DNA from: Trypanosoma brucei
Taxonomy: Eukaryota
Direction: 5' to 3'
DNA: 64,000 nucleotides
Assembly: GCA_000002445.1 (NCBI GenBank)
Contig: CP000068.1
Location: 224,001-288,000 of the forward strand
In this document: piece after piece, positions 7,275 through 13,968 of the stretch
Numbering within the stretch: the first letter of the stretch is position 1
How the letters are laid out: each line of letters opens with the position of its first letter
Notes under the pieces: generated by a model
What the model saw: only the letters and a program-made list of their open reading frames with translations
Told to the model about the DNA's origin: nothing
Database searches by the model: none
Position numbers and translations under genes: made by a program

Positions 7275-10200
7275 ATACCCCTTAAATCTTAAAATTACAA
7301 CTTCACATAAACTTAGCATTTCTCCCCCAACCCGACCCAACCTTACCGTAAAGACTCTTTTTCTCTCCAACAACAACTGTTTTATTAAACTCACTTAAGG
7401 AAACACGCATCTTCCAGATTTTTTTCAAAGATTAAGTAACTCAACATATGTAAGGCAGGCATGCTTTTTATGCGCTTTGTGGGTGCGCGGTGTTCGTTCC
7501 GCCTTTCTTTCGTACGTTTCTCCGATTAGTGAAGAAACCAACTCACTTTCCCCCTTTGCTGTGTTTCCAACAACTCTCTATCGCTGCGATGTTAATCCTA
7601 CAGAGCAAATGGTGATGGTGGTGTGCGCGGGGCCACTCGCTCTTGGTTTCTTGGAACAACCTTGTTTTTCACTCTCGGCAAGGAAGAAACACTTTCCCAT
7701 GCCCGCTGTATTTGCTGTTTCCCACCAAGTTATTCTTCGGAGCGCCTTCGTGTTGGAGTTGTGTTCCACTTCCAGAGCTATCGACAAATGCTATTCCCAA
7801 ATCCGCGTATTCAAGGATAAAGGGGATATTTTCTTTGCCGAAAGAACTTTTTCTTGGTGACATGAAGCACCCAGAGAGTACCTTGATATGCGCATTTCGT
7901 GTTTGTAATTGGAGGGGAAAGGGCTTCACTCAATGGGGGAAAAAATTTTCCTCTGCTCATTCTTTGGTTTATTTTGTGATGTCTCTCTGTACAAATGGAA
8001 AAAAAACTTTCTTCCTTTGGTGTACGACACTATCTTTTGTTTGAGAGCAAACATGGAATGTGACATTGTTGCTTTTCACGCTTTTTGTGCGTGTTTCTAC
8101 TAGGCTACGGAAGGAAGCAAATGTGACAATGTTTGTTGCACCGTTATTTGTGTAGGGCGACTGTCCGACGAGGTGGCTGGGAGGAGAGTCGGATTTGTGT
8201 TCAGTGTACCTGTGTATGGGCTCTTACCGCCTTGGCTGCAGTTTGTGGCGAGACGGCTGCGGCTCCCGAAGTCGTTCATGCGGTAATGCTCTCTTAGCGC
8301 TAGTTTATTCCGTGTGTTTGTTGAAAAACCGCCCGCTGTGCCAAACTCACGGGGGGAGGCTGTTTGTTTGTAGATTTAATCTATCCGCTCGTCCGTTGGA
8401 TATCTGCGGAATTAACCCTAGTTTTCTTTAAGTTCACGTCTCAAAAGCGCTCAGCTCTTTTGCGCCGTCATTTTGCCCACTTAAGGTATTAAGACCGTTG
8501 TCGCCATACATACCCGGATCCGCGGTATCACCTGATTTGGTTGCAGTTTTTGATATCGCGGCTTCGGTTGGTGCAGGTTCTCGCTTCTTGCCGTCTGGAT
8601 TTTCGTGCGTTTTGTGGGAGAAAGATACTGCACTTACATGTTTAACTCTCAGTCTTTAGGTCGAATGGTTTGAGTGTAAAGCGTGGCAACCACCCGTAAA
8701 ATAGCAATCTTCTTTTCGAGGCATTTTCTACCGCGGATTCTTCACGTAGTGATTTTAGGGATGAGGCATTACAGTGGGTGCGGGGAAGATTCTTCGGCTT
8801 CTACCCTTAGATTACTGCCCCACTTTTCTATTTTGTGTCCGTCCTTGTGCTGCATATGTCTGGTGATGGCACCTTATTCCACGCGTTCCGTTGGGCAATG
8901 TTGGGTGTTGAAGAATCCTCGGAGTCAGGTACCTTATTGGAAATGTTATGTCATTCATATCTGTTTTTATTGTATCCTCCTGGTGCGTAGGATGATTCCC
9001 GGAATATGAACGCACAGCTCATCGCGCCATCCAGTTTTGTGCTGCATATTCTCTGTCCTTCAGTTGGTCCTTTTCGCACATTCTTCCCTGGTTCCCCAAA
9101 GGGGGGGGGGTTAATGTTTAATGTTTTCGGTTTCTTTCTCTCCATCCTCTTTGTTTTTTTTCTGCGCTCCATTTTCCTGGGTGACTTTTCCTTTGTCTTT
9201 GCCTTGCCCTTCCCTAATTCGATGCTAATGTTCTTCCGGGTTGTGGAGTTGCTTTTTTATGCATCTGCTACCCATTCCAAACAGACTTGGCTGTGGTATA
9301 TCGGACGTTCCTACTTGTGATTTGTGTCGCCAGGTCATATCCTCTTTGCTTTCCGGTGTGTTGCGCTTGCGCCTCGCCAAAGTCCTCTCTATTTTGGGTA
9401 TTTCGGAACATACTTGGTAACTTATTTCGTCCTCTTCATGCAGCAGCCCTTTCGGCATTCTTTGGTTCTTTCTGCTCGGCTTGCGTGGCCTACGTCGGTG
9501 CATTTTCTTAACCATCCAATCAGTCGGTACTCCTGGGGGAGGGGGGGGGGCGTAAAGGAGGAAGTTTGACCATATTTATTATTTTTGACATTCGGGCAGG
9601 CCCCCTGCTCGTTCCCGAAGGGGTGCTCGGGGGGATATCTGAAGCCCGTGGTTGTACGTGTTCCCATAACGATTCCCCTCGTTCGGGAACTCACATCACA
9701 AACATGGCGCCTGTAGTTTCTCTTGTACGCTTCCGGAGCTTCAGTTTTTTTTTTTTGGGAGCGCCTCCTGTGCTCTTTTAAAAAATATTTCCCATCGAAG
9801 CGCCCTTATCGCATGGTTAATAGCCGAGCCGGTGTATGGCAGCTGAACGTTGCGCACTTGGCATCCGGCTGGGTCATTATATCTTACAACTTGTGATGAT
9901 GAGGGCCTCTAAGGGGAATGGCTATACTTCCAAGGGGGTTTCCCGTCATATGCGTTGTTGAAGCCTGTTTAACTATGGACCCGCTGCGCCGTCCATGCTT
10001 CATGCCCTTTACCCCTTTCATTTGCTGCTACAACCTAATCGAAATGCTTTGATATGTTCGTCCGAGAATGAGTCAATATTTTCTGTGTTACGAAGGAAGC
10101 AATCTCTTCCGGTAAGGCGAGTTTGTCGTACGAGGTCGCATCCCCATGTTTTATCGTTTTGGTTGTTCTCGAATTTGTATCTCATCATTTTTTTCTATAT

Positions 10201-13200: not shown

Positions 13201-13968
13201 GGGTGCGTATGTGGTGTGCCCACTGTTTTCGCTTCAAGACCGCCGCTTGTTTCGCTTGCATTCTTTTCGTTGGAACTGAGACACCGGACGCTTTTGAACT
13301 TGAGATACGGGTCCTGCATATGACGACCGCTTTGTTTTCGTCGAGCTACTTGATTGTCTTTCCATTGTGCGGTTGTGCTTGTGATTTTATTGACATGGGG
13401 GAGAAACGCTTTCCGGACAGGTGATAGGTAGGACAGCGCCCGTGAGTGAGAGTGCGGAACCATCCGTTTTGAGGTATTCCTTTTTTGTTTTCTAAAAGAA
13501 ATTGTTTTTACAGTTCAACAGCCGGTGTATTTTTGCTGTGTATACGTTCGATTACGCTGGTGGGAGAGGTGTTTGAGTCCATATAGTGCTGGTTGTTTGA
13601 AGTTCTTGTGCCCTAGCTCATTGTTTTCCGTAGTCGAAAATGTTCAGCGGGGCTTCCAAACTGAAAAATGAATTTAAATTGTCTTATTTTTTCTATATCA
13701 TGTCTGCTTCAAAGTTCACATTGTGCCGCTGGAGTTTTCACCAAACCCTTCCCTTGCGTGTGCTGGAATTTAACCTGTTTCGAGTTAAGCCATTTAACGC
13801 GTACATTGCTTGTCGGGTGTACGATGGATGAATAATGTGACAACTCCATGTAGTGTTAGTTCCCCAACGCATAATCTATGCTGTCGCCAAACACCAGTAT
13901 TCCAGTTTGTACTTCATTGCCATTTTAATAGTTGCTTAAATAGTGGTTATACGAAGAAGTTATGAGGA
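7275..13968. pseudogene. A 6.7 kb block with complex, coding-like composition but no ORF longer than 170 codons on either strand. It is probably decayed pseudogene or degenerate retroelement (DIRE/ingi-like) material.
   Basis: Composition is unlike the low-complexity purine/pyrimidine UTR tracts elsewhere in the window. Many 60-170 codon ORF fragments occur on both strands. Two weak non-LTR reverse-transcriptase-like motifs are present. The first is the minus-strand ORF 11483..11992, containing FTMGELKLALDEF, reminiscent of RT domain 0. The second is the plus-strand ORF 11365..11598, containing IQFHDDTLMI, reminiscent of the xFADD motif C. A T-run at 9745-9757 and a G-run at 9536-9552 are also present. 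Confidence 0.25.

Follow-up and report, generated by a model that had tools for sequence, protein, structure and literature searches.

A 6.7 kb gene gap on chromosome 5 of Trypanosoma brucei very probably holds a decayed, antisense retroposon of the ingi clade

Results

The 64-kb stretch of Trypanosoma brucei chromosome 5 analysed here (hereafter the window) contains a 6.7 kb block, 7275-13968, that lacks long open reading frames (ORFs) and is bordered by a VSG_B-domain ORF (5790-7274) on the left and by a Tel2-like gene of 962 aa (13969-16857) on the right. We hold with high confidence that the core of this block—firmly 9366-12542, perhaps from ~9110 to ~13300—is a minus-strand DIRE, the decayed relic of an autonomous non-long-terminal-repeat retrotransposon of the ingi/L1Tc clade. 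All coding capacity of the element is lost through stops, frameshifts, and indels, and the fossil is most likely without function, to judge from its fast divergence and decay. It accounts for an otherwise odd gap between genes. The original prediction, made from the sequence before any database search, had suggested a degenerate retroelement of the ingi/DIRE type for the whole block. Its choice of class is borne out by the minus strand of 9366-12542, which is collinear with the Tvingi polyprotein at scores far above those of shuffled sequences, and its extent has to be reduced to ~3.2 kb firm and perhaps ~4.3 kb, with flanks that carry no ingi-clade similarity.

Similarity of the block to ingi-clade elements

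Two full-length ingi-clade elements from Additional file 1 of PMC4035085 served as references: Tvingi of T. vivax (4781 nt; TvY486_10:3,169,044..3,173,845) and L1Tco of T. congolense (4727 nt). When both were compared with the whole window by tblastx, as the original prediction had suggested, the block was the sole region matched. In the best match, Tvingi nt 1647-1826 pair with minus-strand positions 11760-11581; identity is 40% across 60 aa, and the 52.4 bits correspond to E 7e-9 in a search of all 64 kb. Collinear partners of this match lie on the same strand in the endonuclease (EN) at 12542-12396 and in the reverse transcriptase (RT) at 11416-11303. Searches by phmmer with Tvingi protein segments, judged against the best score among 60 composition-matched shuffles, returned two RT domains in two frames (33.6 bits, E 5.3e-12, and 30.7 bits, E 4e-11). 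Weaker matches to the EN C-terminus (7.6 bits), the RT thumb (3.3), RNase H (4.4), and the zinc-finger tail (2.3) lie on the same strand in canonical order, and all of these, like the RT matches, exceed the best of the 60 shuffles. The order endonuclease, RT, RNase H, zinc fingers is kept collinear along the minus strand (12542-12384, 11887-10540, 10513-10287, and 9757-9366), with the RNase H and zinc-finger matches on diagonals one base apart (13703 and 13702).

A frameshift-aware alignment of protein to DNA joins these pieces. Tvingi aa 279-961 align with 12542-10540 at a score of 321, the null maximum being 56, over 661 codons with 28% identity, 46% positives, 7 stops, and 11 frameshifts; Tvingi aa 1064-1364 align with 10513-9604 at a score of 68 under the same null, with 5 stops and 8 frameshifts; and another collinear stretch of zinc-finger sequence, at 9440-9366, has a score of 41, under the threshold. 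In total, at least 12 stops and 19 frameshifts are spread over ~960 aligned codons. Under lenient penalties the score of the minus strand is 654, vs 220-265 for shuffles and 152 for the plus strand, and a two-sequence profile of Tvingi and L1Tco draws the same map (RT 22.0 and 30.3 bits). An identity of 28% to Tvingi is a normal distance between subclades, because Tvingi and L1Tco are themselves just 27.5% identical to each other.

Two weak RT-like motifs, one on each strand, had been flagged in the original prediction. The minus-strand motif FTMGELKLALDEF is a genuine remnant that aligns in register with PITEAELDVVLCEL of Tvingi immediately ahead of the RT core. The plus-strand motif IQFHDDTLMI (11434-11463) exists but is spurious: it reads the region of the genuine RT motif A in antisense. 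The remnants and the neighbouring features are collected in Table 1.

Table 1. Remnants of the element and flanking features in the window. Positions are those of the window; null maxima refer to shuffled sequences.
Feature	Position	Strand	Evidence or remark
GRESAG4-type adenylate cyclase	23-3490	+	Long ORF
VSG_B-domain ORF (VSG-related)	5790-7274	+	Directly 5' of block
Non-coding DNA, presumably 3' untranslated region (UTR) or spacer of VSG-related ORF	7275..9109	+	Negative searches (ingi clade, window proteins, Pfam, Rfam); no coding signal
A-rich stretch, candidate decayed poly(A) tail or 3' end	9110..9163	-	Includes AGAAAAAAAACAAA at 9163-9150
Zinc-finger C-terminal remnant	9366..9757	-	tblastx 27.2 bits; phmmer null maximum 1.4; in score-68 alignment and sub-threshold segment (41)
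Zinc-finger motif SYQVCSEIPKIERTLARRK	9422-9366	-	
Zinc-finger motif YRRHVCD	9715-9695	-	
RNase H remnant	10287..10513	-	phmmer null maximum 3.2; in score-68 alignment
RNase H motif FLFVFSH	10319-10299	-	Tvingi FQFVFSH
RNase H motif VFVDAST	10446-10426	-	
RT C-terminal extension (thumb)	10540..10752	-	phmmer null maximum 1.2; same diagonal; end of score-321 alignment
RT core	11072..11772	-	phmmer 33.6/30.7 bits (null maximum 1.2); tblastx 52.4 bits
RT motif C remnant RHRFFASDPIG (FFASD)	11236-11204	-	
RT motif B GKSQSNLG*ILF	from 11323	-	
RT motif A FVYYERTFCPVYH	11496-11458	-	
RT-core segment KIPKQWKKDVTIPTLQP	11760-11710	-	
FTMGELKLALDEF, conserved motif just upstream of RT core	11849..11887	-	In register with Tvingi PITEAELDVVLCEL; L1Tco has FHLAELLSALRDT
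EN-RT linker, basic, weakly similar	11888..12383	-	Within continuous alignment to Tvingi aa 279-961; weak alone
C-terminal part of AP-endonuclease	12384..12542	-	GPGSDRC*VKFD vs Tvingi DSDHHWITFD; tblastx with Tvingi nt 837-983, 33% identity over 49 aa; phmmer best shuffle 4.5; start of score-321 alignment
Presumed 5' part (endonuclease N-terminus, 5' end), decayed or partly deleted	12543..13300	-	Sub-threshold matches only (PTVNPLPSPPP 12906-12874, SLHHPF 13090-13043); boundary uncertain
Non-coding DNA, presumably splice-acceptor/5' UTR region of Tel2-like gene	13301..13968	+	Same negative searches
Tel2-like gene, 962 aa	13969-16857	+	Directly 3' of block; followed by a 585-aa gene and an F-box gene

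Extent of the element and points against the identification

On the similarity to Tvingi, the element firmly covers 9366-12542 (3.18 kb) and may extend to ~9110 and ~13300 (~4.3 kb). The lenient alignment spans 8987-13294, under a scoring regime that over-extends.

Several observations weigh against our identification or narrow it. The first concerns generic profiles: a frame-corrected translation of the block does not reach Pfam RVT_1 (PF00078) at E <= 1. RVT_1 is likewise without a match in the raw minus frames (E <= 10) and plus frames (E <= 1), and Pfam searches of all six stop-masked frames returned nothing. The failure of even the corrected translation explains these earlier negatives. 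The Tvingi reference itself carries RVT_1 (88.6 bits), Exo_endo_phos_2 (aa 200-299), and zf-C2H2; a generic profile such as RVT_1 misses such fossils, and lineage-specific references detect them easily. The identification rests on two such references, Tvingi and L1Tco. In addition, the Tvingi EN N-terminus has a weak match at 12226-12149 (-) that scores above the shuffles (3.8 bits) and is not collinear with the others; it is probably compositional, reflecting the K/R/E-rich linker.

The remaining points concern the ends. The N-terminal half of the endonuclease is unrecognisable in the block by phmmer and by frameshift-aware alignment. The 5' Pr77/79-bp signature was not found, the L1Tco, Tvingi, TbSIDER1, and TbSIDER2 versions all scoring within shuffles on both strands. 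A search for the target-site duplication that the original prediction had envisaged gave only direct repeats of 9-10 nt between the presumed ends, which occur at chance frequency. The A-rich stretch at 9163-9110 (-) stands ~200 nt after the last zinc-finger match, near the expected end of the ORF, and is statistically non-significant. Because there is no Pr77, convincing target-site duplication, or significant A-rich tail, the ends and full length of the element are not fixed. Likewise, that the fossil has no function is something that we infer from its divergence and decay.

Two further candidates were rejected. A match to the L1Tco endonuclease at 13090-13043 scores no higher than the null, and in tblastx it is paired with a non-coding frame of L1Tco. 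An autonomous ingi (Tbingi) or RIME copy was discarded in view of the lack of a long ORF and of nucleotide-level similarity limited to a single 51-nt stretch at 69%, with nothing beyond it, as compared with Tvingi and L1Tco rather than with Tbingi or RIME.

Composition and coding signal

The block had been described as ORF-less, coding-like in composition, and of ordinary complexity, and most of this description stands. The longest ORF touching 7275-13968 on either strand has 169 aa. GC content is 0.48, 3% of bases lie in purine or pyrimidine runs of at least 12, and the 4-mer entropy is 7.79 bits, vs 7.84-7.87 bits for the coding sequences (CDS) of the window. The large spacers at 36-39.6, 49.4-53.9, and 55.1-59 kb differ clearly, with a GC content of 0.33-0.37 and 16-27% of bases in such runs. 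The likeness to coding DNA holds for composition alone and not for codon structure: period-3 power is 0.73 in the block vs 0.78 in intergenic regions and 2.65 in CDS, and the best-frame codon-usage score is at the level of intergenic regions. Nor does the shattering into short ORFs testify to decay, as had been supposed, since the longest stop-free run of 188 codons compares with a shuffle mean of 182 and ORF lengths are thus at chance level. Stop trinucleotides are fewer than in shuffles (449 vs 534); we rejected this deficit as a coding relic because the same trinucleotide bias is found in all non-coding regions of the window. No Rfam family (E <= 1), tRNA, tandem repeat, or repeat common to the rest of the window was detected in the block.

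The plus strand of the block is T-rich (A 0.19, T 0.33), as the antisense of a T-poor retroposon would be; on the sense (minus) strand of the element, T content is 0.18, as in Tvingi. Between 12500 and 13500 the plus strand is G/T-rich with a positive GC skew (+0.13 to +0.24); the conserved syntenic array opens with its first gene ~0.5-1.5 kb further downstream. This G/T-rich segment may be the antisense of a C-rich 5' region of the element.

Distribution, divergence, and synteny

The window is 98.3% identical to T. b. gambiense DAL972 (FN554968, ~207-228 kb) over 20.5 kb and 99.5% identical to contig CZPT02001031 of GCA_001457755.2, an assembly that we take to be T. equiperdum OVI. The block was found in T. 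b. gambiense at ~213.5-220.2 kb of FN554968, in GCA_003543875.1, and in CZPT02001031, and the element therefore predates the split of the T. brucei-group genomes examined, to which it is common. The comparison with T. b. gambiense, proposed in the original prediction as a check on whether the block is lineage-specific, shows the block present there and diverging faster than its neighbours: mismatches and indels amount to 1.87%, vs 0.8-1.3% in CDS and 1.0-1.4% in other spacers. The right end is among the fastest-diverging parts (3.3% at 12635-13304 and 2.6% at 13305-13968). Nothing suggests purifying selection on the block. The density of lesions, ~1 per 90-100 nt aligned, roughly indicates that decay would be far older than the 1.9% divergence of brucei and gambiense.

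Two features of the alignments to GCA_001457755.2 were noted. Within the VSG-related CDS (6932-6998) the alignment to its contig is interrupted, and mismatches amount to 3.6% directly beyond the interruption. Mismatches clustered at 9519-9540, beside a G10 run, were set aside since they reflect a run of N in that assembly and not biology.

The long ORFs of the window are all on the plus strand. Homology with the corresponding loci of T. cruzi and T. melophagium begins at the Tel2-like gene. In three T. cruzi assemblies and in T. melophagium, a DUF2838 gene and a gene of 412-435 aa precede the Tel2 orthologue on the same strand, and in some T. cruzi assemblies the opposite strand nearby carries a GAPDH-like and an aminotransferase gene; no trace of any of these four neighbours was found in the block or elsewhere in the window. 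As homology begins at the Tel2-like gene and the upstream neighbours are absent, the block sits at a synteny junction between a conserved core and T. brucei-type surface-protein genes.

The same junction that carries the DIRE in T. brucei is polymorphic in T. cruzi. Comparison of one T. cruzi locus (L005, 6533-9723) with two others (L006 and L004) places the minus-strand GAPDH-like and aminotransferase genes immediately upstream of the Tel2 orthologue; the pair is intact in one assembly, fragmented in GCA_000209065.1, and absent in the third. Near this syntenic neighbourhood, T. melophagium (JAJSEB010000025, ~1100-5400) carries the remnant of a VIPER/DIRS-like retroelement immediately upstream of the DUF2838 gene; its RT motif reads LQIDFEAFYDSIP and its RNase H motif FTDASADGWGA, and its N-terminus resembles a recombinase. 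Used as a query against the block, this element gave only chance-level, non-collinear matches.

Discussion

Proposed history and comparison with known retroposons

We propose that target-primed reverse transcription brought the element into the genome of a T. brucei-group ancestor, at the junction between the conserved gene core starting with the Tel2-like gene and the T. brucei-type surface-protein genes (GRESAG4, VSG-related). It has since lost all coding capacity and presumably has no mobile-element activity now; the plus-strand polycistronic unit would transcribe it in antisense as a mere passenger, and it would be drifting neutrally. What remains of the block, ~1.8 kb to its left and 0.7-1.4 kb to its right, would be ordinary untranslated or spacer sequence of the flanking genes.

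The element belongs to a known, long-described class in a well-studied genome. TbDIRE was reportedly described by Ghedin in 2004 and by Bringaud in 2006. Like TbDIRE, the block holds a long vestigial ingi-clade retroposon with EN, RT, RNase H, and zinc-finger remnants in order, many stops and frameshifts, and no autonomy or mobility, and it sits at a synteny junction beside expanded families of surface-protein genes. Unlike TbDIRE, it has no recognisable 79-bp signature, target-site duplication, poly(A) tail, or EN N-terminal half, and the element lies inside a one-directional gene array. DIREs are degenerate relatives of ingi/L1Tc of ~5 kb that occur in all trypanosomatid genomes (PMC3820030), and the ingi, RIME, and DIRE copies of T. 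brucei have been annotated genome-wide, those within one-directional gene arrays being few (38 in total; PMC2323293). What the block adds is one more DIRE where conserved trypanosomatid synteny yields to lineage-specific surface-protein genes, a position that fits the old idea that such elements mark sites of rearrangement or insertion.

Tvingi is the best reference, with the same domain order and an identity of ~28% from the EN C-terminus to RT (661 codons) and ~25% in RNase H and zinc fingers. It is near-intact (4.8 kb, with Pr77, poly(A), and long ORFs), whereas the block copy, with its at least 12 stops and 19 frameshifts, has no ends and carries a deletion of ~275 nt between RT and RNase H. 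L1Tco shares the clade, the architecture, the FxxAELLSAL-type motif upstream of RT, and the RT motifs, but matches the block much more weakly. Since its RT match reaches 1.8 bits vs 33.6 and 30.7 bits for Tvingi, the fossil is, on sequence similarity, nearer the ingi lineage than the L1Tc lineage. The Leishmania SIDER and LmDIRE elements resemble the block as extinct ingi-clade relics in transcribed non-coding regions of polycistronic units; SIDERs, however, are short elements of ~0.6 kb that have multiplied massively and been co-opted for regulation in 3' UTRs, and the block shows no sign of co-option.

Alternative explanations

Co-option is nonetheless the alternative that survives best, although we regard it as quite unlikely. 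The antisense DIRE together with its GT-rich right flank (~12.5-14 kb) might form an internal polycistronic boundary, for termination and re-initiation, or a regulatory 3' UTR or long non-coding RNA of the VSG-related gene; a boundary here would leave the T. brucei-specific GRESAG4/VSG-related pair on one side and the conserved array, which the Tel2-like gene opens, on the other. The position at a synteny junction is compatible with such a role, as are the GC skew and G/T-richness of the plus strand at 12.5-13.5 kb, and it is known that T. brucei retroposons are enriched at strand-switch regions and that the related Leishmania SIDERs regulate mRNAs (PMC2323293). Yet no other segment of the locus evolves as fast as the block, whose divergence from T. 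b. gambiense is highest at 12.6-14.0 kb (2.6-3.3%), no Pr77 promoter signature survives, and in African trypanosomes SIDERs have neither expanded nor undergone domestication (PMC3820030).

We consider it very unlikely that the block or its flanks are a graveyard of RHS, GRESAG4, ESAG, or VSG pseudogenes, as the original prediction had offered as a second possibility, or of the genes that precede the Tel2 orthologue elsewhere. The setting would suit such decay, since the block adjoins GRESAG4 and VSG-related genes at a synteny break and ~2.5-3.5 kb of it has no assignment. However, tblastn with every protein of the window, GRESAG4 and the VSG-related ORF among them, found nothing better than E 0.25, and six-frame Pfam searches gave no VSG, ESAG, RHSP, or cyclase match (RHS and ESAG being represented by Pfam models only). 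The T. cruzi and T. melophagium neighbour genes leave no trace here, as described above, and neither a period-3 nor a codon signal is seen anywhere in the block.

That the whole block is simply a long UTR or intergenic spacer, made up of the 3' UTR of the VSG-related gene and/or the 5' region of the Tel2-like gene with no origin from a transposable element, seems highly improbable to us. A T-rich plus strand resembles the transcribed non-coding DNA of the unit, coding signal is missing, and Pfam, Rfam, tRNA, and repeat searches are all empty; but the T-richness is equally expected from the antisense of a T-poor retroposon, and the highly significant collinear minus-strand similarity to ingi EN, RT, RNase H, and zinc-finger regions refutes a spacer for 9366-12542. 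For the flanks, 7275 to ~9100 and ~13300 to 13968, it may be the fitting description.

Finally, six small genes of 104-169 aa are called in the orthologous T. b. gambiense block (FN554968; locus L002, 8828-14526, corresponding to window ~7477-13180), and the 169-aa ORF, which carries FTMGELKLALDEF, has a counterpart there named 'T. brucei spp.-specific protein'. The idea that these are real lineage-specific proteins deserves next to no credence: the 169-aa ORF is indeed intact in both genomes at 96% identity, but ORF lengths are at chance with no codon signal, it diverges more at the amino-acid level (4%) than the neighbouring genes do, a search of 5.8 billion proteins returned no homologue except the T. 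b. gambiense orthologue, and it follows the RT frame only around FTMGELKLALDEF, running otherwise through frameshifted retroposon sequence. Lying inside a retroposon fossil, most of the six T. b. gambiense calls, including the one so named, are probably spurious ORFs.

Other features of the window

Two tandem duplications occur to the right of the block. A pair of ORFs of 266 and 237 aa shares a 300-nt stretch that is 100% identical (28453-28752 and 29582-29881). A second pair, of 330 and 332 aa (45299-46291 and 48390-49388), which we presume to be casein kinase 1 paralogues, has stretches that are 77-96% identical.

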